In this document: positions 3,646 through 59,312 of the stretch, one piece after another | Layout: every line of letters begins with the position of its first letter | Position numbering within the stretch: position 1 is the first letter of the stretch | Origin: an uncultured Subdoligranulum sp. | GTDB lineage: Bacteria > Bacillota > Clostridia > Oscillospirales > Ruminococcaceae | NCBI RefSeq assembly: GCF_904374465.1 | Contig: NZ_CAJFFY010000002.1 | Length of the DNA stretch: 64,000 bases | Strand: one strand, 5' to 3' | Notes under the pieces: generated by a model | What the model was told of the DNA's origin: nothing | What the model saw: only the letters and a program-made list of their open reading frames with translations | Databases searched by the model: none | Position numbers and translations under genes: made by a program

Positions 3646-3721
3646 GCCGGCGAAGCACAAATGGCTGTGCAGCTGATTTGTAATCAGAAGGCTACGGGTT
3701 CGAGGCCCGCCGCCGGCTCCA
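3646..3721 (+). tRNA. tRNA-Thr (anticodon TGT), phage-encoded
   Basis: 76 nt with canonical numbering. Acceptor GCCGGCG/CGCCGGC, D stem GCAC/GTGC with G18G19, anticodon loop TTTGTAA, T loop TTCGAGG, encoded CCA. Atypical A8 and mismatches at 27:43 (G.A) and 49:65 (A.C). Confidence 0.8.
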
Positions 3722-3724
3722 TAT

Positions 3725-3799
3725 GCGAGGGTCGTATAACGGCTAGTACACCAGCCTTCCAAGCTGGGAGCGGGGGTTCGATTCCCCTTCCTCGCTCCA
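3725..3799 (+). tRNA. tRNA-Gly (anticodon TCC), phage-encoded
   Basis: 75 nt. Acceptor GCGAGGG/TCCTCGC, anticodon stem CCAGC/GCTGG with loop CTTCCAA, T arm GGGGG-TTCGATT-CCCCT, discriminator T, encoded CCA. Confidence 0.9.
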
Positions 3800-7313: not shown

Positions 7314-7787
7314 GTGCTCGAAAAAATCAGGGAAGCCGTGAAGGGCAAGGCGCGGCGAAAGCATAGCCCAAGGGCGCAGGAACTGGAAGCGCAGCTGCAG
7401 GCTATGCACGACAAGGCAGACCGGTATAAACAAGGGCTTGTGCGGGAGCGTGAGGCACACGGGCAAACCGAAGCGGAGCTGGTGGAAGAACGGCGCTTTG
7501 CTTTCAAGGCGTTTTGCAGGCTCGCCAAAAGACTACTCAGGGGGAAAATCGAGAATGTCAGCATAGAATACAGCGGATTCGGATGCCGCCACGTTCAACT
7601 CGATCTGATGCCGACAGAGGGAGAAGCAAAGGCGCTCGCGGACACGGTATGGGGAACCAAAGAACGTGATCTGCTGGACAGGGATAAGCTGTACCGTGCG
7701 CTGAACGAAGGCATTGAGCGGGGGCAAATTAAGGACCTGACCGATGCCGCGCGCCTGGTACTGGATATGCCCGGAGAGGACGAATAG
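7314..7787 (+). CDS. Hypothetical coiled-coil phage protein
   Basis: GTG start 8 nt after GGAGG; charged, helical composition. Confidence 0.6.
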   Translation: MLEKIREAVKGKARRKHSPRAQELEAQLQAMHDKADRYKQGLVREREAHGQTEAELVEERRFAFKAFCRLAKRLLRGKIENVSIEYSGFGCRHVQLDLMPTEGEAKALADTVWGTKERDLLDRDKLYRALNEGIERGQIKDLTDAARLVLDMPGEDE

Positions 7788-8008: not shown

Positions 8009-8561
8009 GGACATGAGCAGGAAGGCCCAGTACAAGCTGCTGTGGGACGAGTACCTTGGAAAGCGCGAAGGCGCAAAAAAACTGATGGAATGGATGGAGG
8101 AAGCCGGATTTTTTGAGTCGCCTGCCAGCACAAAGTACCATGGGAGCTACCCCGGCGGGCTGTGCCAACACAGTCTGAACGTGGCTTTCAACGCGCTTGA
8201 TCTGTGCAGTCTGCCTGCGTTTGAAGGAGTCAGTCGGAACGAGGCCGTGACAGCGGCCCTCCTGCATGATTTGTGCAAAGTCGGTTGCTACTGGCTGGAC
8301 GACAACAGAAGATACCATTACACCGAAGCCTGGGGACTGGGCCATGGAACCGGAAGCGTGACCCTGGCGCAGAGATACATGAAGCTGACCGACGCGGAGC
8401 AGGTGGCGATTCGCTGGCACATGGGAATGTATGGCGACGCGGACAAGGCGGGAGAACTGGCCAGCGCTTACAAGAAGTGCCCGCTGGCCATGCTGCTTCA
8501 CCACGCTGACATGATGGCTACATACTACTGCGATGGGAAAAAAGGAATGGGCCTGGTATGA
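7992..8561 (+). CDS. HD-domain metal-dependent phosphohydrolase
   Basis: Motifs KYHG ... CQHSL ... LLHDLCK ... GHG ... HHADMMA, typical of the HD superfamily. Confidence 0.75.
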   Translation: MEQNFEDMSRKAQYKLLWDEYLGKREGAKKLMEWMEEAGFFESPASTKYHGSYPGGLCQHSLNVAFNALDLCSLPAFEGVSRNEAVTAALLHDLCKVGCYWLDDNRRYHYTEAWGLGHGTGSVTLAQRYMKLTDAEQVAIRWHMGMYGDADKAGELASAYKKCPLAMLLHHADMMATYYCDGKKGMGLV

Positions 8562-11195: not shown

Positions 11196-11552
11196 ATGAA
11201 ACCTGAAGGCGACTACGTGGCGAAATCGGAAGATGTCCAAAGCTTCTTTGCGTGGACGGGATTGAAGGTGATAACTACTTATTCGCTAGGACGATGGGTA
11301 CAGAAACGACGGCACAAGAAGAAGCGCATCAATAAAAAATGGTTGAAGCGGTTCGGGATGGTCAATGTATCAAACGGTTTCTTCACGCTTATAGACGAAA
11401 CCAATGGCGTAATGTACGTCCACCCGGACAACTGGGAAAAAATAGTTAAAGCGATGCAGGAAAGAGAAAAGCGGCTGGGCATAAGCCCGTACGAAACGGG
11501 CGGGGCTCCCGGGGGAACAACCGGAGGGAAAAGTCAATGCTGGATGAAGTGA
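11196..11552 (+). CDS. Hypothetical basic phage protein
   Basis: GAGGAGGG RBS; contains KRRHKKKRINKKW. Confidence 0.55.
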   Translation: MKPEGDYVAKSEDVQSFFAWTGLKVITTYSLGRWVQKRRHKKKRINKKWLKRFGMVNVSNGFFTLIDETNGVMYVHPDNWEKIVKAMQEREKRLGISPYETGGAPGGTTGGKSQCWMK

Positions 11553-12376
11553 ACGAAACAATCATGTACCTGGATATGTGTGATCTGGACCAGATCGCAG
11601 AAAGCGGACAATGCTTCCGCTGGATGCCGTGCCGTGAAGGAGGATACCTCGTGCACGATGGCGCAGACCAGGCGTACATAAAGCAGATCGGGACTGTACT
11701 GGTGGTGCGGTACGCGGGCAACACGTTGGCCAAGTGGTTCCGATACCTGGATGCCGGAACGGATTACAGGCACATCCTGGAAAGCATTCCCGACGACGAC
11801 AAGTATCTGCGCGCCGCTGCTGATCGGGGGTGCGGGCTGCGGATTCTCAGAGCGGACCTGTGGGAAACCATGGTTTCTTTCATCATTTCCCAGAACAACA
11901 ACATCCCCCGTATCAAAGCGAGCATCTATGCGCTGTGCCGCAAGCTGGGGAAGCCCCGGCGGTCATTGTTGGGAGAAGTGGGAAAAGACCTGGGGAAAGA
12001 TTTCTATTTCACATTCCCCACCCCGGCGGATATGGCCGATCTGGATGCGCTGCAGGGGCTGGGACTGGGGTACCGGGATAAGTACCTGGCCGAACTGGCG
12101 CGGGATGTAATGCTGGGACGATTCCGGCCGGACAAGCTGCAGGATATGTCCACCGATGAGGCCCACCGTTATCTGAAAAGCGTGCGGGGAATCGGGGACA
12201 AGGTGGCCAACTGCATTTTGCTGTTTGGCCTGGGTCGGCATGATGCGTTCCCGGTGGACACCTGGATGAAGAAGATCATCGACCGGGAGTACGGCGGGAA
12301 GTTCCCACTGGAACGATACAGCGGAACTGCAGGAGTAATTCAGCAGTATATGTTTTACGCAGAAAGGACTCGGTGA
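11537..12376 (+). CDS. HhH-GPD DNA glycosylase, 8-oxoguanine glycosylase (Ogg)-like
   Basis: SGQCFRW N-terminal motif; LWETMVSFIISQNNNIPRI; HhH segment LKSVRGIGDKVANCILLFG followed by AFPVDTW (catalytic Asp region). Confidence 0.75.
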   Translation: MLDEVNETIMYLDMCDLDQIAESGQCFRWMPCREGGYLVHDGADQAYIKQIGTVLVVRYAGNTLAKWFRYLDAGTDYRHILESIPDDDKYLRAAADRGCGLRILRADLWETMVSFIISQNNNIPRIKASIYALCRKLGKPRRSLLGEVGKDLGKDFYFTFPTPADMADLDALQGLGLGYRDKYLAELARDVMLGRFRPDKLQDMSTDEAHRYLKSVRGIGDKVANCILLFGLGRHDAFPVDTWMKKIIDREYGGKFPLERYSGTAGVIQQYMFYAERTR

Positions 12377-13087: not shown

Positions 13088-13978
13088 ATGAAACAGAAAA
13101 CCTACATCCGAGAACAGAAAACCGTATGCGGAAAAGAATACATGGAGGTAGACCTTTTCCGAGTGACAGAAGCGGAACACAAGGCATCCCGCCGAGCCAA
13201 AAAAGAAAAGGCAAGCAGCATTGCCATGCAGAACTGCAACGAGCGATACTCCCGGCGTTATCTCAACCAGCTTGTGGCCACAAATTTCAGCCGAGAAGAA
13301 GGGGCGATGGTGCTGCACCTGACCTACGAGGACGGCTATCTGCCGGGTACCTGGGAAGAAGCAGGACGGGACCTGTCGAATTTCGTGAGGAAGATCAACC
13401 GACGGTGCAAGAAAAAGGGGCTGCCAAAGGCCAAGTGGATAGGTGTCACGGAACACCAAGACAAAAAGCTGACGGAAAACGTGAAAGAAGTGCGGTTCCA
13501 TCATCACATGATTTTGCAGTGCGGGTTGGGTCTGGACGAAATCAAAGACAGCTGGAGCACTGGGCGCGGATTGTGGCAGGAGCCATTGGGCCTAATCACA
13601 GCCGACCGGGCCGAGTTCAAACACGGGACGTTGGACGCCTTCTGCCAGTACATAACCAAGTACCCCCGGCGGAAACGCCGGTGGCGCCAGAGCCAGGGAC
13701 TAAAAAAGCCGGAACGGCCGGTGCCGAACGACACAAGGTACAGCCCCCGGAAATTGGACCAGGTAGCGCGGGAGAGAATCGATGATCGCGAGTTCTGGGA
13801 AAGTCGGTACGGGAAACAGAAGCGCTGGGACGGAGAGCGGGAATACCGGTTCGTGGAAGCGGAAGCCAGGTATAACGACGTAGCCGGGACATGGCACGTT
13901 ACGGCGAAGTTTTGGGCAGACCCCCGGCGGCAGCCCGGAAAGCGGAAAGGCAAAAAGGGGGCAGATGCGTGTCGGTGA
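13088..13978 (+). CDS. HUH-superfamily rolling-circle Rep-like protein (phiX174 gpA / P2 gpA type)
   Basis: HUH-type motif VRFHHHMIL and a two-tyrosine motif FCQYITKY (YxxKY). Confidence 0.55.
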   Translation: MKQKTYIREQKTVCGKEYMEVDLFRVTEAEHKASRRAKKEKASSIAMQNCNERYSRRYLNQLVATNFSREEGAMVLHLTYEDGYLPGTWEEAGRDLSNFVRKINRRCKKKGLPKAKWIGVTEHQDKKLTENVKEVRFHHHMILQCGLGLDEIKDSWSTGRGLWQEPLGLITADRAEFKHGTLDAFCQYITKYPRRKRRWRQSQGLKKPERPVPNDTRYSPRKLDQVARERIDDREFWESRYGKQKRWDGEREYRFVEAEARYNDVAGTWHVTAKFWADPRRQPGKRKGKKGADACR

Positions 13979-15819: not shown

Positions 15820-16041
15820 TTACTTGTGTATCGTCGAACCACTTCTGCGACACAATTCCGCTTTGATGTCAAATACTTTTTGGCGGGCACGTTCCCACGA
15901 CTTCAATGAAGGCAGTTTGGAAAGCCTCATGCCGGCGCCCCATCCAAGATCGGATTTTACAGTTTCGGCATAGTATTTTCTTTCGGCGGCAGAGAGCATC
16001 TTTTGGAGGGTTTCGGTTTTATATCTTGTGTAGTCGGCCAT
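15820..16041 (-). CDS. Hypothetical protein (73 aa)
   Basis: GAAAGGAGG RBS. Confidence 0.6.
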   Translation of the reverse strand: MADYTRYKTETLQKMLSAAERKYYAETVKSDLGWGAGMRLSKLPSLKSWERARQKVFDIKAELCRRSGSTIHK

Positions 16042-16055
16042 AGCAATGCCTCCTT

Positions 16056-16283
16056 TCAGTTATGGGGATAATAGGCCACGACTTCGCCGGTGATGCTGTC
16101 GTGACGGCTGATGATGGTATAGCCGAATTGCTCCACATCGGAGTTGGCGGATTGCAGCACAGCGGCGATGTACTCCGGGCCGCGATGAGCGAAACGATCA
16201 GGCTTTGTGTAGCGTCGGCGGAAATCTTCGACGCTGGCGGCAGGGACCTGGTATTTCTTGAAAACATCGTGCAGATTTTTCAT
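16056..16283 (-). CDS. Hypothetical protein (75 aa)
   Basis: GAAAGGAG RBS. Confidence 0.6.
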   Translation of the reverse strand: MKNLHDVFKKYQVPAASVEDFRRRYTKPDRFAHRGPEYIAAVLQSANSDVEQFGYTIISRHDSITGEVVAYYPHN

Positions 16284-16313
16284 GCGGAAATCTCCTTTCG
16301 TTTTGTGCTATCT

Positions 16314-16362
16314 GGCTGGGGTCGGGTCGCTTTGTTTCCGGTGCGGCCCGCGAAGGTGTCCG
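16314..16362 (-). repeat. Intergenic repeat family A, copy 1
   Basis: GGCTGGGGTCGGGTCGCTTTGTTTCCGGTGCGGCCCGCGAAGGTGTCCG; near-identical to the copies at 17682-17730 and 17961-18009. Confidence 0.9.
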
Positions 16363-16395
16363 GGCGTCATTTTCGTGGGGTCACGAAATTGGTTG

Positions 16396-17415
16396 TTATT
16401 CAAGGCCCAACGCTCGGCGGGCGGCGCGCTCGGCGTTGTCTGTCAACTGCCGTTGCCATGCGTTGTTACGGGGCGACCAGCGGAAACCGTTGGATTTGAG
16501 GGCGGAGCGGGTGGCCTCGTCGGGCTTGCCGTCGAAAATGATTTGCAGACGGTTTTGCTCGGCGTTGCGAACGATCTGAAAGCCGTCATGCTCCTCGGCC
16601 GGCACCGGGGTGGACTGTTGAGCTTGCAGCCTGTCCAGTTCTTCAATGCGGGCCTGTACTCGCTTGATCTTGCCGCGTAGGCTGGCAAGCTCAAAATCAG
16701 GCATGGGGCGCTGCGCAAAGGCCGGGGCGCTGGCAATGGCCGCATCGTTGCGGGCGGCGGCTTCGTCGCTCATGCCGGGAAAGCCGCGGAGGGTCTTGTG
16801 CTTACGATACCAGGCATTCATGGCTTTGCCTTCGTCAAGCTGGTGTTGCAGGCGGTGGAGTTGGTCGCCCAGCATTTCGCGTGCGTAGGGGTCGGTCAGA
16901 TCGACGGGGCCCGTGCCAACGCTCTTGATTTTGTACAGAATGGCCTCGATGTCCTTGTACTCGGCCCACAGGCTGTCCTCGCGGGCGTTTTGCCGGGCCT
17001 TTTTGCGTACTGGGAAATTACCGGCACCGCACACCAAAACGCTGGGGCAGCTCGCCCCGTTGCGGTTGTAGTCGTTTGTCCACTGGGCCAGGCGGCGGGC
17101 GTACCGGTCCAGCAGCGTGTCCAGCTTGTTGTGGTAGTAAGGGCTGGTGGCTGCTTTGCGACGCTCGACCAAAGCAGAAGCCTTGTCAACGGCAGCCCGA
17201 TATTCGGCGGTAGCACTGCCGGCCTCATAATCAGACATCGACATCATATCGTGTGCCCGGCGGGCGGTGTTTTCGTCGATGGGGTAATAGAATCCCCCAG
17301 CCGCTTTTTGGGGCGAAGCCTCGGCGGGCTGCTCGGTTATCGGCTGGGCGACCGGCTTGTTGTCTGCGCCCGGGGCGGCTGCGATGTCATCAAAAAGGCT
17401 CATTTGTTCGCGCAT
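16396..17415 (-). CDS. DUF3560-like protein typical of conjugative elements
   Basis: C-terminal QIIFDGKPDEATRSALKSNGFRWSPRNNAWQRQL pattern; AAGGAGG RBS. Confidence 0.55.
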   Translation of the reverse strand: MREQMSLFDDIAAAPGADNKPVAQPITEQPAEASPQKAAGGFYYPIDENTARRAHDMMSMSDYEAGSATAEYRAAVDKASALVERRKAATSPYYHNKLDTLLDRYARRLAQWTNDYNRNGASCPSVLVCGAGNFPVRKKARQNAREDSLWAEYKDIEAILYKIKSVGTGPVDLTDPYAREMLGDQLHRLQHQLDEGKAMNAWYRKHKTLRGFPGMSDEAAARNDAAIASAPAFAQRPMPDFELASLRGKIKRVQARIEELDRLQAQQSTPVPAEEHDGFQIVRNAEQNRLQIIFDGKPDEATRSALKSNGFRWSPRNNAWQRQLTDNAERAARRALGLE

Positions 17416-17444
17416 GGTGTTTCCTCCTTGCTGTGTGGTGTGGC

Positions 17445-17606
17445 TTACAGGTTGAGAAGCAGACGGGCCTTGTCGTCGTCAACGAAGTTTGACCATCCGG
17501 CCTCGTGAAGCTCCTCGGCGGCCTGGTGGAGCGTAAGCACGCCGGATTTCACATCGTCGCGCAAGCTCTCTAAAATGCCCTTGATTGGGAGCGGGTCTTT
17601 GCACAT
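17445..17606 (-). CDS. Hypothetical small protein (53 aa)
   Basis: Internal start MCKDPLPIKG of track ORF 17445..17771, after AAAGGA. Confidence 0.45.
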   Translation of the reverse strand: MCKDPLPIKGILESLRDDVKSGVLTLHQAAEELHEAGWSNFVDDDKARLLLNL

Positions 17607-17639
17607 GGTATCAGATCCTTTCTGTGTTTTGGGTTGTGG

Positions 17640-17730
17640 CCCATGAGCGCCCCGCCTTGATGGAGCGGGGCCGGCCTTGTGGGCTGGGGTCGGGTCGCTT
17701 TGTTTCCGGCGCGGCCCGCGAAGGTGTCCG
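17640..17730 (-). repeat. Composite intergenic repeat: family-B-like hairpin fused to family A copy 2
   Basis: CCCATGAGCGCCCCGCCTTGATGGAGCGGGGCCGGCCTTGTGG followed by the family A unit. Confidence 0.85.
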
Positions 17731-17748
17731 GCGGATTGTGGTGCAGGG

Positions 17749-17907
17749 TCAAAGCATGGCCCAGTAAACATTCAGGGCCTTTTGTATCCAGTGCAGGGGA
17801 GCCATGCGCTGTTCCAGGTCTTGCGCAATCTTGCGGACATCCTCGGCGGTTTTGGCAGCACCCAGTGCGGCGTCAACGGCAGATTCGTTCTCGTAATAAG
17901 TCACCAT
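17749..17907 (-). CDS. Hypothetical small protein (52 aa)
   Basis: GAAAGGAGAAC RBS; MVTYYENESAVDAALGAAKTAEDVRKIAQDLEQRMAPLHWIQKALNVYWAML. Confidence 0.5.
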   Translation of the reverse strand: MVTYYENESAVDAALGAAKTAEDVRKIAQDLEQRMAPLHWIQKALNVYWAML

Positions 17908-17952
17908 GAAAAGTTCTCCTTTCTAAGCTGCTTTGTTATGTAGATTCGGCCC

Positions 17953-18009
17953 TCCTTGTGGGCTGGGGTCGGGTCGCTTTGTTTCCGGTGCGGCCCGCGA
18001 AGGTGTCCG
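17953..18009 (-). repeat. Intergenic repeat family A, copy 3
   Basis: CCTTGTGGGCTGGGGTCGGG...GAAGGTGTCCG, ending 5 nt from the stop of the upstream gene. Confidence 0.9.
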
Positions 18010-18014
18010 ATATA

Positions 18015-18578
18015 TTATAATTTCCAGTTTTTTGTGGCGGGGAGTTGGTCGCCGTCGGGAAATGCTGCGCCGTGAAATGTGCCGTTATGATCGACACCCT
18101 CCCAGCGGTCGAGATACAAAAGGGCTTTGTCGTTGGCCTCTTGTTCGGTGAGGCGGTAAACACGAGTCAGCTTGAGCCATCCACCGGGCCATGCGTAGGT
18201 TTGACCCTTGCGGGCGGTTTGCTTAGTAAGGGACGGCAATTTGTCAAGCATCCGCTGGCGTGCGGCGCGGTATTCTGCTGTTGCCTTGTTCTGTGCGATG
18301 GCAGCAGAGAGGCGGAAGATCAAGCCAGGGTCGTCTGTGACAAGCCGGAAGGCATGGGAGAAGGTGAGAAAGTTCCCGAAAATGATTGTGCATCCGGCGT
18401 ATTTGGCGGCCGCTTCATCGGATAGCCATTCCGGAGACGGGTTGACGAAATTCCCGTAAAGCTCAAAAACGGGGTCGAGGGTGTAGCATTCCAGATCGTG
18501 CAGAATGTTTTCCTCGGTGTCAGAGATAAAAGACCACGGCGCGGCGGGATTGGTGACGTGATTTAGATATTCTGTCAT
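18015..18578 (-). CDS. Hypothetical protein (187 aa)
   Basis: Start MTEYLNHV after GGAGG; the rest of track ORF 18015..18734 is 5' UTR. Confidence 0.6.
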   Translation of the reverse strand: MTEYLNHVTNPAAPWSFISDTEENILHDLECYTLDPVFELYGNFVNPSPEWLSDEAAAKYAGCTIIFGNFLTFSHAFRLVTDDPGLIFRLSAAIAQNKATAEYRAARQRMLDKLPSLTKQTARKGQTYAWPGGWLKLTRVYRLTEQEANDKALLYLDRWEGVDHNGTFHGAAFPDGDQLPATKNWKL

Positions 18579-18613
18579 GGTGAAAACCTCCGGTTTATGT
18601 TTTGGGGCTGTAA

Positions 18614-18697
18614 CCCTTGAGCGCCCGCCCCGGTGTGGAGCGGCTGGGCTTGCACCAGCGGCGGCGGCTGCCGTCGGCCTTGCGGGCGTTGTTATGC
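18614..18697 (-). repeat. Intergenic repeat family B, copy 2
   Basis: 84 nt, aligns end to end with 19698-19780; includes the last Ala codon and TAA of the upstream gene. Confidence 0.85.
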
Positions 18698-19642
18698 GCA
18701 GCGGATGTAGTAGGCGGAGCGCTTGGCGGACCATTTGCCGCCAGCCTTTTCAATGGCGGCTTTGTTGTGCTCCACGTCACCGGACAGCCAAACGATGGGG
18801 ATGCTTGTCTGGGCGCCCTTGATCGTGGCGGTGATACCAGCCAGCGCGGAAAACTTCTTGGCCAGGTCCTGGGCGGCCGCGGCCGGGGAACTGTTCGACT
18901 TGGCCGAACAGTTGGCGGCGGGCTTGGCCTGCTGCTCGGCAGCTACCCGGGCGGCGTGTTCGTCCTGCAACTGACGGCGAAGCCGGCGCGCGTCCTCTTC
19001 CAGCTGGGCCTGCTCCTGTTGTGCGGCGTTGAGCGCGGCGCGCAGGTTTTTGACTTCCTGGCTCTCAACTACTTCGGGGGCGTCTGAAAACCAGGCGCGG
19101 ACGGCCCGAAGATGGGCGGCGCAGCGGGGAGAATCGGCATTGAAGTTGATCGGAAGCACAAACCCGACAGGGGACTTCTCGAAAATCGCCAGTGCGCCGG
19201 CGGTTTTGTGCGCGGAAATGAAGATACAATCGCTGAAAACGCTTGTGTATTCCTGGTCATAGGATTCCAGACCGTCGCCGTTGGGGTTGTGGTAGAACTC
19301 TACAAGACGGCGGGCACCCTTGTCCTGCAACACCAAGGGGCAAGGCTCCAAAATGCCGCCGTTGGTGTTCTCGCTGACGATGCGGGAAAACAGCGCGGCA
19401 ATGTCCAGCGGCTTGCAGTCTTGTTCATCGCCGTTGCGATAAAAATAATCCGATGGGGCGCGGTGTGTGACGGGGGAGACGTGGTTGTTGTACTGCTCTG
19501 CCGTGAGGATAACGGCCAGATGGTCAGTGGCGGCATAAATAACGCCGCTTTTGACGTTCACGGCCAGCTTCCCGTGTTTGAACGACGCACGGAAAACTTT
19601 CGTGAGGGACGCGGTAAAGGGCTGGGGAATGATTTTTTTCAT
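18692..19642 (-). CDS. Hypothetical protein with coiled-coil and conserved C-terminal module
   Basis: Start MKKIIPQPF after CAGGAGG; C-terminal WLSGDVEHNKAAIEKAGGKWSAKRSAYYIR. Confidence 0.6.
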   Translation of the reverse strand: MKKIIPQPFTASLTKVFRASFKHGKLAVNVKSGVIYAATDHLAVILTAEQYNNHVSPVTHRAPSDYFYRNGDEQDCKPLDIAALFSRIVSENTNGGILEPCPLVLQDKGARRLVEFYHNPNGDGLESYDQEYTSVFSDCIFISAHKTAGALAIFEKSPVGFVLPINFNADSPRCAAHLRAVRAWFSDAPEVVESQEVKNLRAALNAAQQEQAQLEEDARRLRRQLQDEHAARVAAEQQAKPAANCSAKSNSSPAAAAQDLAKKFSALAGITATIKGAQTSIPIVWLSGDVEHNKAAIEKAGGKWSAKRSAYYIRCA

Positions 19643-19670
19643 GTGGGGTGCCTCCTGTTGTGTTGTTGTG

Positions 19671-19690
19671 CCCGGCGGGGTGTTGCCGGG
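19671..19690 (-). repeat. Leader hairpin family C, copy 1
   Basis: CCCGGCGGGGTGTTGCCGGG, just 5' (gene sense) of the RBS of CDS 18692..19642. Confidence 0.8.
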
Positions 19691-19697
19691 ATGGTTA

Positions 19698-19780
19698 CCC
19701 ATGAGCACCCGCCCCGTTGTGGGGCGGCCGGGCTTGCACCGGCGGCGCGTTGTGCGTCGGCCTTGCGGGTGTTGTTATGC
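19698..19780 (-). repeat. Intergenic repeat family B, copy 3
   Basis: 83 nt; contains the CCGCCCC-GTTGT-GGGGCGG hairpin. Confidence 0.85.
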
Positions 19781-20452
19781 CAGGACGTTGGAGGCCAGGG
19801 TGGCAAAATCGAGCTGCTGAGGAACCGCCAGAATCACGCCGGTTTCGGTGGTGTTGTCGTTCAGGTCCTTGTGCGCGGTCTGGGCAATGACAACCGGCGC
19901 GGACTGCTGTGCAGCTGCTGCCCGGCGGGCCTTGCGCTGCGCGGCCAATTGGGCGTTATAGGCCCGGATTTCCTCGGCGGTTTTGACGTGGACGGCCGGC
20001 CGCTCTGCGGGAACCTCTACCTGGTCACGGTGGAACAGGTAGGACAGCTTCTTGTAGTAATGCGGGTCGTTGGGGTGATCGTCAACCAGTTTCTGCTCGG
20101 CGGCTGAAACGGCCTTGACCGCCTTGGCTTCGGCCATTGCCTTGCGCTGGGCAACGCTGGGCTTGTCGGTGAAGCGCCAGAGGGGGACGGCCAGGGCAGC
20201 TTTCTCGCCGCGCTTGACCTGCAGGCCCTGCTGCTTCCACTCGTTGTAGGTGTGGAACATGCCGGCAACACTCATTGCCTCGGCAATCTGCAGGGGGTCA
20301 GCGGTGTTGCCGTTCTTGTCCGGCTTAACCTGGATGTGAGCGGCCATGCTGGCCAGCTGCTCAGCGCTGTGATGGGCGGCCGCCATGGTGTGAATCTGCT
20401 CAGGGGAAAATGCGGTTTTGATGGCTTCCAGAATAATCTCGTTATTGGTCAT
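19775..20452 (-). CDS. ArdC N-terminal-domain-like ssDNA-binding (antirestriction-type) protein
   Basis: FHTYNEWKQQGLQVKRGEKAALAVPLWRF resembles the ArdC-N/DUF1738 signature; CAGGAGG RBS. Confidence 0.6.
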   Translation of the reverse strand: MTNNEIILEAIKTAFSPEQIHTMAAAHHSAEQLASMAAHIQVKPDKNGNTADPLQIAEAMSVAGMFHTYNEWKQQGLQVKRGEKAALAVPLWRFTDKPSVAQRKAMAEAKAVKAVSAAEQKLVDDHPNDPHYYKKLSYLFHRDQVEVPAERPAVHVKTAEEIRAYNAQLAAQRKARRAAAAQQSAPVVIAQTAHKDLNDNTTETGVILAVPQQLDFATLASNVLA

Positions 20453-20488
20453 GATAGTGCCTCCTGTATATTTTTTTATTGCTTGATA

Positions 20489-20508
20489 CCCGGCGGGGTG
20501 ATGCCGGG
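20489..20508 (-). repeat. Leader hairpin family C, copy 2
   Basis: CCCGGCGGGGTGATGCCGGG, in the same position relative to the RBS of CDS 19775..20452. Confidence 0.8.
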
Positions 20509-20657
20509 CGGTGGTGGCGGGCTGCTTTAGGGTGCAGCCTGCGAGAGTGTCCCGGGTGCGGTAGTGTGTCCCGCCGGCCCTTGGCTCTTGGCTGCCAGGT
20601 TAGCCCCGAACCATCGGCCCCGGTTCGGTAGGTGCTTGCGTGTCGCTTGCTGTGCTT

Positions 20658-20775
20658 GCATGGTACCACGCCAAAAGCGCAGATGTCAAGCATGGCACCA
20701 TGTTTTCTACGGATTGCACAAACAGCATGGCGCCACGCCGGGAAAAAGTTGTGCGAACTGCGCATGGAACCACGC
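20658..20775. promoter_or_regulatory. Array of four operator-like near-palindromes, GCATGG-NN-CCAYG
   Basis: Copies at 20658-20671, 20690-20702, 20725-20738 and 20762-20775 (spacing 32, 35, 37 bp), followed by TATAAT at 20781-20786, upstream of the RHH gene. Confidence 0.6.
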
Positions 20776-20814: not shown

Positions 20815-21000
20815 ATGGCAATATCAGAGAAAAAAGCTATATCAGACAAGAGGCATCTGGAAAAACTGGACAAAATCAAAATCCAGCCGTACAAGGCCGA
20901 GGGGCAGCAGATCAGAGAGGCCGCCCAGGCTGCCGGGCAAAGCCTGCAAGGATATATTTTGCAGGCTATCCGGGAGAGGATGAACAGAGAAAAGCAATAA
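20815..21000 (+). CDS. Ribbon-helix-helix (CopG/Arc-like) DNA-binding protein
   Basis: 61 aa, with SLQGYILQAIRERM typical of RHH helix 2; GGGGGT RBS. Confidence 0.55.
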   Translation: MAISEKKAISDKRHLEKLDKIKIQPYKAEGQQIREAAQAAGQSLQGYILQAIRERMNREKQ

Positions 21001-21004
21001 AGCA

Positions 21005-21047
21005 AAAGCCGCGCGGTTCAAAAACCACGCGGCTTTTTATTTTTTTA
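21005..21047 (+). terminator. Rho-independent terminator
   Basis: AAAGCCGCGCGG / CCACGCGGCTTT stem followed by TTATTTTTTT. Confidence 0.8.
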
Positions 21048-21050
21048 TAT

Positions 21051-21278
21051 CACACACCCGCATATACGCACACCCACATACCCGCATACCCGCATACGCA
21101 CATACCCGCATACGCACACACCCGCATACGCACACACCCGCACAGGCCCACACACCCGCACAGGCCCACACACCCGCACAGGCCCACACACCCGCACAGG
21201 CCCACACACCCGCACAGGCCCACACACCCGCACAGGCCCACACACCCACACACAGGCCTACACACCCACACACAGGCC
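21051..21278. repeat. C/A-rich tandem repeat: six perfect 18-mers plus degenerate flanks
   Basis: CACACACCCGCACAGGCC x6 at 21131-21238, two 20-nt variants at 21239-21278, and degenerate CGCATAC(C/G)C units at 21051-21130. All three minus-strand frames are open only because of composition. Confidence 0.95.
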
Positions 21279-21299
21279 CGCGCACTCGCACAAGCCGAG

Positions 21300-21440
21300 G
21301 GCAAAAATATAATAACGCGCGATTCCAACGCACGCGCGCAATTCCAACACGCACGCGCGTGCGATCACGCGCGTGCCAGGCGCACACGCGCGGGCGCGCA
21401 TAGGTACTGTGCGCGTATGCGCGCGCAGTGCGGGTTCGGA
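21300..21440. promoter_or_regulatory. CG-alternating palindrome cluster (candidate cos / terminase recognition region)
   Basis: CACGCGCGTG palindrome at 21352-21361 and 21366-21375. The 9-bp inverted repeat GCGCGCATA (21394-21402) / TATGCGCGC (21416-21424) has a 13-bp spacer. Direct repeat ATTCCAAC..GCACGCGCG x2. Confidence 0.35.
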
Positions 21441-21579
21441 AGCGCAAAAGTTTCGCAGGTATCAACATTTTTTTAGGGCTTCCCCCGCCCGGACCGAAAA
21501 AACAAGGCCGGGGTCAAAAAAGCGAATGATGATAGTTTATGATAGTTTTTTTATGATATATTGATATAAAGAAAGCTGC

Positions 21580-49409: not shown

Positions 49410-49500
49410 TGGCGGAGTAAGAGAGATTTGAACTCTCGCGGCCCTTTCGGACCCTACGCCCTTAGCAGGGGCGCCTCTTCGACCTCTTGAGTATTACTCC
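49410..49500 (-). tRNA. tRNA-Ser (anticodon GCT)
   Basis: 91 nt, reverse complement GGAGTAATACTCAAGAGG...; anticodon loop CTGCTAA, long variable arm, encoded CCA. Confidence 0.93.
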
Positions 49501-49539
49501 ACAGTCAAAGTGAGAAAATGATTCACTTGTTATACAAAA

Positions 49540-49630
49540 TGGCGGAGAGGATGGGATTCGAACCCATGGTCCGCTCGCGCGAATCGCTGGTTTTCAAGAC
49601 CAGTTCCATAAACCACTCGGACACCTCTCC
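49540..49630 (-). tRNA. tRNA-Ser (anticodon TGA)
   Basis: 91 nt, GGAGAGGTGTCCGAGTGG...; anticodon loop CTTGAAA, long variable arm, encoded CCA. Confidence 0.93.
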
Positions 49631-59235: not shown

Positions 59236-59312
59236 GGATGATTAGCTCAGCTGGTTAGAGCGCTGCGTTCACATCGCAGAGGTCGAGGGTTCGAGTCCCC
59301 CATCCTCCACCA
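59236..59312 (+). tRNA. tRNA-Val (anticodon CAC) with two stem mismatches
   Basis: GGATGATTAGCTCAGCTGGTTAGAGC; anticodon loop TTCACAT; encoded CCA. T4:C69 and A50:C64 do not pair. Confidence 0.75.

Follow-up and report, generated by a model that had tools for sequence, protein, structure and literature searches.

Why should structured repeats fill most of the gaps between the genes of a single operon? The question is raised by a reverse-oriented operon of eight genes (g1 to g8) on the minus strand of contig NZ_CAJFFY010000002.1 (RefSeq assembly GCF_904374465.1), from an uncultured Subdoligranulum sp.; the stretch of this contig that was analyzed, 64,000 nucleotides in length, is referred to here as the window. 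An initial annotation, made from the letters of the DNA, had sorted the repeats into three families, A, B and C, and had listed RNA processing or stability elements, attenuators, recombination sites for cassette shuffling and single-stranded DNA (ssDNA) structures as possible roles. By their covariance-model matches, family B is the twister-sister class of self-cleaving ribozymes (RF02681) and family A is the RAGATH-5 motif (RF02685). In all likelihood the repeats act in cis as RNA elements, placed in the 5′ leader and between the cistrons of a single accessory operon of a prophage, and their most likely role would be to cut or insulate its polycistronic mRNA.

Identification of the intergenic repeats

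A repeat search recovered the three families where the initial annotation had placed them: family A at 16301-16362, 17669-17730 and 17948-18009 (identity 82-95%), family B at 18610-18697 and 19694-19780 (87-96%) and family C at 19671-19690 and 20489-20508 (95%). Rfam covariance models were applied at their gathering scores (34 bits for RF02681 and 50 bits for RF02685), with a permissive scan at an expect value (E) ≤ 5 of the gaps and the leader as a supplement; R1 is a model of RAGATH-5 built in this analysis. All twister-sister and RAGATH-5 matches lie on the minus (coding) strand, and neither Rfam nor R1 gave a match to either family elsewhere in the 64 kb. No other Rfam family was found in the gaps or the leader at E ≤ 5, bar chance-level matches around a candidate terminator at 21004-21037. 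The elements and the hairpins beside them are as follows.

20505-20556, minus (Rfam match 20505-20554): fourth RAGATH-5 copy, divergent, in the leader 5′ of g1; Rfam 39.1 bits (below 50), R1 42.8 bits, E 1e-6
20489-20508, minus: family C hairpin CCCGGC-AUCACCCC-GCCGGG, directly 3′ of the leader RAGATH-5
19692-19773, minus: twister-sister ribozyme 1 (four-way junction form); RF02681, 84.0 bits, E 6e-18
19671-19690, minus: family C hairpin after twister-sister 1, just 3′ of a GNRA mini-hairpin, AUGG-GUAA-CCAU
18608-18690, minus: twister-sister ribozyme 2; RF02681, 72.9 bits, E 9e-15
17957-18010, minus: RAGATH-5 copy; RF02685 57.7 bits, R1 57.9 bits
17949-17963, minus: hairpin GCCC-ACAAGGA-GGGC after RAGATH-5, resembling a twister-sister P1 stem without its interior
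17678-17731, minus: RAGATH-5 copy; RF02685 51.2 bits, R1 53.9 bits
17634-17687, minus: degenerate twister-sister from the permissive scan; 28.3 bits (below 34)
16371-16388, minus: 7-bp hairpin UUUCGUG-ACCC-CACGAAA, just past the g6 stop and upstream of RAGATH-5; also in the related loci L003 and L004
16310-16363, minus: RAGATH-5 copy; RF02685 51.6 bits, R1 58.5 bits

The operon thus holds seven elements in 5 kb and eight genes, together with a promoter and a terminator. Repeat-bearing gaps of 107-142 nt had been described between all eight genes; this holds for five of the seven gaps (132, 113, 107, 142 and 112 nt), and those of 29 nt (g5|g6) and 14 nt (g7|g8) carry no element. The intergenic hairpins do lack U-tracts, the sole hairpin with one being that after g8 (15748-15704). 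The family C hairpins had been placed at a fixed distance 5′ of the CAGGAGGCAC ribosome-binding site (RBS), but one copy lies 13 nt from it and the other 22 nt.

Bacterial self-cleaving ribozymes cluster together near phage-like genes, and the RAGATH motifs were found through this clustering (Weinberg et al., 2015, as summarized in PMC6765202 and PMC8782182). Because both families are already in Rfam and such clustering has been published, the finding is known in kind and adds no new category. The locus resembles the published clusters in combining several classes within a few kilobases, on one strand, among hypothetical and phage genes; here the arrangement is dense and well delimited.

Twister-sister ribozymes in the operon

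Both full twister-sister copies cover model positions 1-81, i.e. the model from end to end, and share the P1-L1-P2, P3, P4 and P5 arms of the four-way junction form (PDB 5Y87). In the crystal structure of this class cleavage falls between C62 and A63 in GCUC^AU, G5 touches the scissile phosphate and an A63U mutant is dead (PMC5660989). The conserved L1 residues examined, with roles taken from the same source, were G5, C6, A7, A8 and G9 on one strand and G59, C60, U61, C62, A63 and U64 on the other. The L1 strands read GCAAG and GCUCAU in copy 1 and GCAAG and GCUCAA in copy 2; in both copies the SL4 loop GUGCAAGCC is intact and GGUGCAAGCC is present, and copy 1 has a G-U pair in P2. Because PMC5660989 places cleavage at C62-A63, the predicted cuts are at C19703/A19702 in ribozyme 1 and at C18619/A18618 in ribozyme 2.

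A hairpin at 17640-17673 had been described as related to family B. The relationship stands, and the hairpin is part of a third twister-sister copy, 17634-17687, that has decayed by deletion: in alignment with the full copies, the short repeats GCAAGGCCG and GCAAGCCCG flank a deletion that removed P2 to P4, and in the window an A takes the place of the active-site G5. This copy lacks the full architecture and active-site guanine of the class, is not counted as a member, and is probably inactive as judged from these changes. Minimal twister-sister-like ribozymes without SL4 can cleave, slowly, and the third copy is like these ‘lantern’ forms only in outline (PMC11620745). Among the relatives, which are loci found through g6 (L001, L002, L003, L004 and others), L004 holds the same composite of RAGATH-5 and decayed twister-sister, the twister-sister part scoring 34.8 bits.

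Two mutually exclusive folds had been proposed for family B, one a 7-bp long-range helix with a compensatory change between the two copies and the other a local hairpin. The local hairpin is stem P5 of the ribozyme, and what looked like a compensatory change is variation of the usual kind (A-U/G-U and G-C/G-U) in the P1 and P2 stems of the accepted fold. The variable pair of the 7-bp helix is formed in 10 of 33 distinct copies, compared with 28 of 33 for the accepted outer P1 pair, and this helix was rejected as a covarying one. A CCCGC/GCGGG complementarity is invariant in the twister-sister consensus, with no sign of use.

The start that the initial annotation saw as common to the family B copies, GCA TAA, is real: g1 (19775-19783) and g2 (18692-18700) both end in GCA UAA, followed by CAAC and then by twister-sister. 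The unit at g1|g2 matches that at g2|g3 even in the preceding GCAUAACAAC, which suggests duplication or gene conversion within the operon. As the g2 orthologues of L001, L003 and L004 keep the same GCAUAACAA end but continue into hammerhead II, the g1|g2 unit of the window looks like a copy of the g2|g3 unit, including its last codon and stop codon.

Pseudoknot and proposed base triples in RAGATH-5

With R1, 285 RAGATH-5 copies were found in loci totaling 824 kb; since most of these loci were fetched from viral contigs by a RAGATH-5 sequence pattern, the figure should not be taken as a background rate. Pairs were counted in an alignment made with R1 (75 distinct sequences), MAFFT having misplaced a gap in the window-type subfamily and in short-loop copies, and since the sequences are related the counts given below are not independent events. 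The hairpin of the Rfam model is supported, with 83% of cells paired, four of its ten pairs changed on both sides and all slid controls far lower; one covarying pair, for example, is C-G in 44 sequences and U-A in 31. The stem-closing pair is G-C in 72 of 75. The 5′ flank pairs with the loop to give a pseudoknot of 3-5 bp, whose outer pair is C-G in 32 sequences, G-C in 17, A-U, G-U and U-G in one each, and unpaired in 13. A separate count found this pair formed in 124 of 162 copies, against 67 ± 5.5 in shuffled sets.

Covariation also links two purines of the 3′ stem strand to two pyrimidines of the 5′ linker, the register being parallel. The two pairs of columns hold C with G or U with A only, in 167 and 166 of 172 copies, with mutual information of 0.81 and 0.85 bits as against ≤ 0.05 when the columns are crossed. 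Each of the four possible combinations occurs (CU/GA 71, CC/GG 38, UC/AG 32, UU/AA 21), and counting them as pairs gives 100% versus 76% for shuffles. We read this covariation as two major-groove triples, U.A-U and C+.G-C. RAGATH-5, which has many invariant nucleotides, may then be read as an H-type pseudoknot that includes a short triple helix, has AAA as an invariant part of loop 3 and ends in N-CCA; the CCA that follows the stem is conserved in the Rfam consensus, and N is mostly C, otherwise A (the leader copy), U or G. The Rfam structure line consists of the hairpin with unpaired flanks. To this the pseudoknot, the two parallel-register triples and a usual 3′ companion hairpin are added here; they go beyond that line, and we do not claim them as new. 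Our literature search found no mention of RAGATH-5.

A different fold had been drawn for family A, joining CCUU and CGCGGGC to GCCCAC and AAGG. On the transcribed strand it contains a C-A mismatch, and the copy at 16310-16363 lacks the 3′ arm; the covariation backs the hairpin and pseudoknot instead. Assignment of RAGATH-5 to the hepatitis delta virus (HDV)-like, pistol, hatchet or twister ribozymes was likewise discarded: there is no P3/P4, the pseudoknot polarity is wrong for pistol, and there is no covariance-model match, no known ribozyme class showing similarity at E ≤ 5.

The divergent leader copy ends in A-CCA and keeps the pseudoknot and both base triples, with compensatory changes relative to the other three copies in the pseudoknot (CGGG/CCC versus CCGG/CCGG) and in the triples (UC/AG versus CU/GA). 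Just upstream of it, at 20555-20577 on the minus strand, lies a partial tandem duplicate of the RAGATH-5 5′ segment (CCGGCGGGACACACUACCGCACC), and farther upstream in the leader is another hairpin, CCGAACC-GGGGCCGAU-GGUUCGG.

Companion hairpins

In about 80% of RAGATH-5 copies a stable hairpin follows within 10 nt, and the mean minimum free energy of the 40 nt downstream is -9.7 kcal/mol, compared with -5.1 kcal/mol for shuffled sequence; the Rfam model reaches only the start of the 5′ arm of this hairpin. The commonest type, CCGGCA..GCCGG, is family C of the initial annotation. Among its 121 distinct occurrences 73 follow RAGATH-5 and two follow twister-sister, that at 19671-19690 being one of the two; the GNRA mini-hairpin between this copy and ribozyme 1 starts at the predicted 5′ end of the ribozyme's 3′ cleavage product.

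In the subgroup to which the window belongs, the companion is GCCC-N4-7-GGGC with a CACAAC..AAAAC leader, which corresponds to the P1 stem and 3′ flank of twister-sister. Three states are found, namely a full twister-sister, RAGATH-5 with a decayed twister-sister, and RAGATH-5 with a bare P1-like hairpin. Set side by side, they resemble steps by which RAGATH-5 would take the place of a ribozyme.

Exchange of elements among related loci

The same-strand gaps of the relatives contain twister-sister, hammerhead type II and RAGATH-5 in varying combinations. At g2|g3 the window has twister-sister where L001 and L002 have hammerhead II; at g1|g2 it has twister-sister and hairpin C where L001, L003 and L004 have RAGATH-5; and upstream of g5 the window and L004 share RAGATH-5 with a decayed twister-sister where L001 has a full twister-sister. 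RAGATH-5 is therefore accompanied by ribozymes both in the operon itself, where three copies above the gathering score stand with twister-sister, and at orthologous junctions, where relatives hold hammerhead II or twister-sister in its place. Among distinct copies 237 of 248 are followed on the same strand by a Shine-Dalgarno (SD) sequence, a start codon and an open reading frame (ORF), and 12 face a gene in the opposite orientation. The median distance from CCA to the start codon is 52 nt, similar to the 40-60 nt that twister-sister cleavage would leave in the window.

The initial annotation had asked whether gene order between the repeats varies among related elements. Gene content and order between the repeats do differ among the relatives, and the blocks of homology are bounded by the elements: for example, one block shared with L004 runs from 18686 to 16281, and blocks shared with L001 run from 18608 to 17959, 17679 to 16396 and 16363 to 16029.

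More distant loci show other arrangements, and the g6 family is accompanied by differing ribozyme classes across taxa. L148, from an Acutalibacteraceae metagenome-assembled genome (MAG), has two type-P5 twister ribozymes (7593-7652 and 8086-8159) downstream of a g6 homologue with 46% identity. A 4.7-kb viral contig (L012) carries eight twister-sister ribozymes between 861 and 4437, on one strand and before almost every small gene; there the g6 homologue precedes the g3 homologue, a gene order different from that of the window. D12-methyl RNA motifs (RF02950, 86-92 bits) occur at L006:3150-3213, L008:2396-2459 and L009:2774-2837, each adjoining tRNA genes and lying upstream of a more distant g6 homologue, in antisense orientation to it.

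Proposed function and alternative explanations

Among the roles first listed for the repeats, that of RNA processing or stability elements is the best supported, family B being a self-cleaving class and family A a motif found beside such ribozymes. Self-cleavage of the twister-sister class has been shown (PMC5660989), and processing of polycistronic transcripts has been proposed for clustered bacterial ribozymes, as summarized in PMC6765202 and PMC8782182. Each full twister-sister would cut its own transcript at C^A in GCUC^AU, so that the ribozyme body, with a 2′,3′-cyclic phosphate, would remain on the 3′ end of the upstream message and the downstream message would receive a 5′-OH and a leader of 40-60 nt. 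After the cut in ribozyme 1 the new 5′ end could form AUGG-GUAA-CCAU, with hairpin C directly next to it. RAGATH-5 most likely gives an equivalent result, because it occupies the same position and takes the place of ribozymes at orthologous junctions; it would define or protect an mRNA end and uncouple each gene from the upstream context, acting as a nuclease roadblock or as the site of a trans-acting nuclease rather than by self-cleavage. The expected mRNA units would be g1, g2, g3, g4, g5-g6 and g7-g8. As a side effect, the shared sequences of 50-85 nt would serve as patches of homology for the exchange of cassettes between phages.

Several observations weigh against this account. Ribozyme 2 has an A at the residue equivalent to U64, and the stability of the fold predicted at the 5′ end left by ribozyme 1 does not significantly exceed that of shuffled sequence (z = -1.0). 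RAGATH-5 is among the candidates for which self-cleavage has not been reported, its equivalence to the ribozymes being drawn solely from position and replacement. The leader RAGATH-5 precedes the first gene and so has no cistrons to separate; pure cistron separation accounts for it less well than a role in defining or protecting an mRNA end. In favor of the account, further candidate structures found through ribozyme clustering did not cleave in vitro (PMC6765202, PMC8782182), and a RAGATH-5 without self-cleavage fits the statement on these candidates in PMC6765202. Our tentative proposal, which may well prove wrong, is that RAGATH-5 is a non-ribozyme triple-helix pseudoknot of about 50 nt, ending in N-CCA, that serves as phage mRNA punctuation or as an insulator exchanged with ribozymes, either by stalling host exonucleases or by recruiting a host endonuclease.

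RAGATH-5 could instead be an unrecognized self-cleaving ribozyme, perhaps only together with its 3′ companion hairpin, that failed in vitro on account of construct or conditions. Its occurrence at the positions of twister-sister and hammerhead II, both of which it replaces, would be explained, as would its invariant nucleotides, its compact pseudoknot-triplex fold and the stable downstream hairpin, which lies mostly outside the Rfam model; it has also been noted that non-cleaving candidates might be inactive only in the conditions used (PMC6765202). We nevertheless think it unlikely: no cleavage is reported for the remaining candidates (PMC6765202), about 20% of copies have no companion hairpin, the hairpin of one subgroup looks like a leftover twister-sister P1, and no known ribozyme class is similar at the threshold given above.

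The mosaic of the relatives raises another possibility, that the repeats are mainly DNA-level recombination sites for cassette shuffling, their RNA structure being incidental. The element-bounded homology blocks, the variation in gene content and order, and the likeness of the g1|g2 and g2|g3 units, with the duplication or gene conversion that it suggests, all speak for this. However, the elements are RNA families whose stems, pseudoknot and triples covary and whose G-U pairs are confined to the transcribed strand; their orientation strictly follows that of the genes, they keep a tight distance to start codons, and no recombinase is encoded beside them. A site-specific system would not tolerate unrelated twister-sister, hammerhead II and RAGATH-5 elements at the same junctions, and homologous recombination at any shared patch of 50-85 nt explains the mosaic as a by-product. 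Cassette shuffling accordingly holds as an evolutionary pattern, because gene order varies and homology blocks are bounded by elements, but as the role of the repeats in itself it is very unlikely. The related suggestion of ssDNA structures of a plasmid leading region found no support in a tailed-phage context with RNA-family matches and G-U pairs on the mRNA strand. Integron attC-like sites and leading-region ssDNA promoters were rejected too, the genome being that of a tailed phage and a Pfam scan of ten proteins (the eight of the operon and two neighbors) containing no integrase or relaxase.

The G-C closing pair followed by N-CCA recalls a tRNA acceptor end, and RAGATH-5 might mimic the substrate of a host nuclease such as RNase P, to be cut in trans, which would explain the missing self-cleavage. 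The likeness is pure resemblance, and it conflicts with the third strand in the major groove of the helix, with a coaxial stack of about 14-15 layers rather than 12, with the lack of a T-loop-like sequence and with a nucleotide 5′ of the stem that is not the preferred U; we give this idea little credence. Least credible of all are transcription attenuators, terminators or ligand-sensing switches tuning read-through, for which structured elements between genes and the general likeness of RAGATH-5 to some pseudoknot riboswitches might argue, since no U-tract follows any intergenic element (only the hairpin at 15748-15704 after g8 combines a G+C-rich stem with one), SD sequences lie 20-40 nt downstream, outside the folds, and up to nine copies per operon in free exchange with self-cleaving ribozymes suit a sensor poorly.

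Probable prophage setting and neighboring features

The 64-kb window is a tailed-phage genome, with plus-strand genes for a small terminase, a gpA-type large terminase, a lambda-type portal, a ClpP-like protease, a major capsid protein E and a tape-measure protein, and is most likely a prophage of the Gemmiger/Faecalibacterium group. The minus-strand module, 15820-20452, is placed between the replication module and the terminase genes. The largest gene of the operon, g6, has its closest relatives in Gemmiger sp. An87 (91%), a Flavonifractor MAG (76%) and Gemmiger gallinarum (68%). At the DNA level, Faecalibacterium phage FP_Toutatis is the closest among deposited phages whose host has been identified; in it the same reverse-oriented module lies between antiterminator/replication genes and the small terminase, with gene gaps again of about 100 nt and at least seven RAGATH-5 copies. 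The operon comprises the following features.

20660-20689, minus: sigma-70-like promoter, a match to consensus only (TTGACA, 18 nt, TG-n-TACCAT); leader of about 200 nt
19775-20452, minus: g1, 225 aa, ArdC-N-like; PF08401 24.3 bits (cut-off 22.6); phrog_34979, phrog_7245
18692-19642, minus: g2, 316 aa, no assigned function
18015-18578, minus: g3, 187 aa, no assigned function
17749-17907, minus: g4, 52 aa; ortholog in L004 96% identical
17445-17606, minus: g5, 53 aa; element-free gap of 29 nt to g6
16396-17415, minus: g6, 339 aa; phrog_19458 (‘primase’), E 1.6e-126
16056-16283, minus: g7, 75 aa; element-free gap of 14 nt to g8
15820-16041, minus: g8, 73 aa
15704-15748, minus: intrinsic-terminator-like hairpin followed by CUUUUCUUUG, at the end of the operon

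The ArdC-N domain forms the N-terminal part of ArdC, an anti-restriction factor. For g2 to g8 there was no Pfam match above the cut-off. The ‘primase’ label of g6, which comes from the annotation of FP_Toutatis, looks unsupported, because g6 has no Pfam match and no sequence relative in the PDB. A 96-nt stretch containing the terminal hairpin folds at -29 kcal/mol (z = -5.4).

Four near-palindromes, GCATGG-NN-CCA(Y)G (TGGNNCCATGC on the minus strand), lie at 20658-20772, spaced by 32-37 bp, and the pattern has no other match in the 64 kb. Their positions overlap the -10 of the operon promoter and abut its -35, within the divergent region that the operon shares with a plus-strand gene of 61 aa (20815-21000) resembling ribbon-helix-helix (RHH) proteins. 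From this arrangement they look like candidate operator sites for a repressor of the ribozyme-rich operon. Between the RHH-like gene and a minus-strand ORF (21037-21468) is a G+C-rich hairpin of 15 bp (21004-21037), flanked by runs of A and U, which is a candidate bidirectional terminator; the chance-level matches in this region are weak, sub-threshold ones to ctRNA_pGA1 and the trpB motif. The replication module contains a protein like OGG_N/HhH-GPD 8-oxoguanine glycosylases (11537-12376) and one with a Rep ORF2/G2P-like domain (13088-13978). Genes for tRNAs (Thr, Gly, two Ser and one Val) are found at 3646-3799, 49410-49630 and 59236-59312. A shift in AT skew and G+C content near 48-50 kb, not far from the tRNA-Ser pair, may mark a prophage end or attachment site.

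Relation to known systems and significance

The SAM-II riboswitch and the telomerase RNA pseudoknot are H-type pseudoknots with a major-groove triplex between loop 1 and stem 2. RAGATH-5 resembles them in its size of about 50 nt, its pyrimidine-rich loop 1, which covaries with the purine strand of stem 2 as U.A-U and C+.G-C triples, and a loop 3 ending in the invariant AAA; it differs in that the SD sequence lies outside the fold, many copies occur per operon and there is no sign of ligand binding. RiboJ, which joins a hammerhead to a hairpin, and Csy4 sites are synthetic insulators between genes. The order of parts is alike at the present locus, from ribozyme to hairpin to unstructured leader to RBS, as is the expected uncoupling from the upstream RNA context; RiboJ and Csy4 sites are engineered parts, whereas a natural function is what we infer here.

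No paper addressing what these ribozymes do in prophages turned up in our literature search. The value of the locus is that of a model, a compact operon with clear limits and a cultured relative, FP_Toutatis on Faecalibacterium prausnitzii, and it would allow a direct test of the roles of bacterial self-cleaving ribozymes and of the non-cleaving RAGATH motifs. The class swaps at orthologous junctions, the mosaic boundaries at elements and the pseudoknot and triples of RAGATH-5 yield concrete constructs and predictions. Should the punctuation or insulator role that we tentatively propose for RAGATH-5 be true, it would settle the function of a motif unexplained since 2015, and it would mean that several unrelated kinds of modular RNA insulator are carried in phage gene cassettes.

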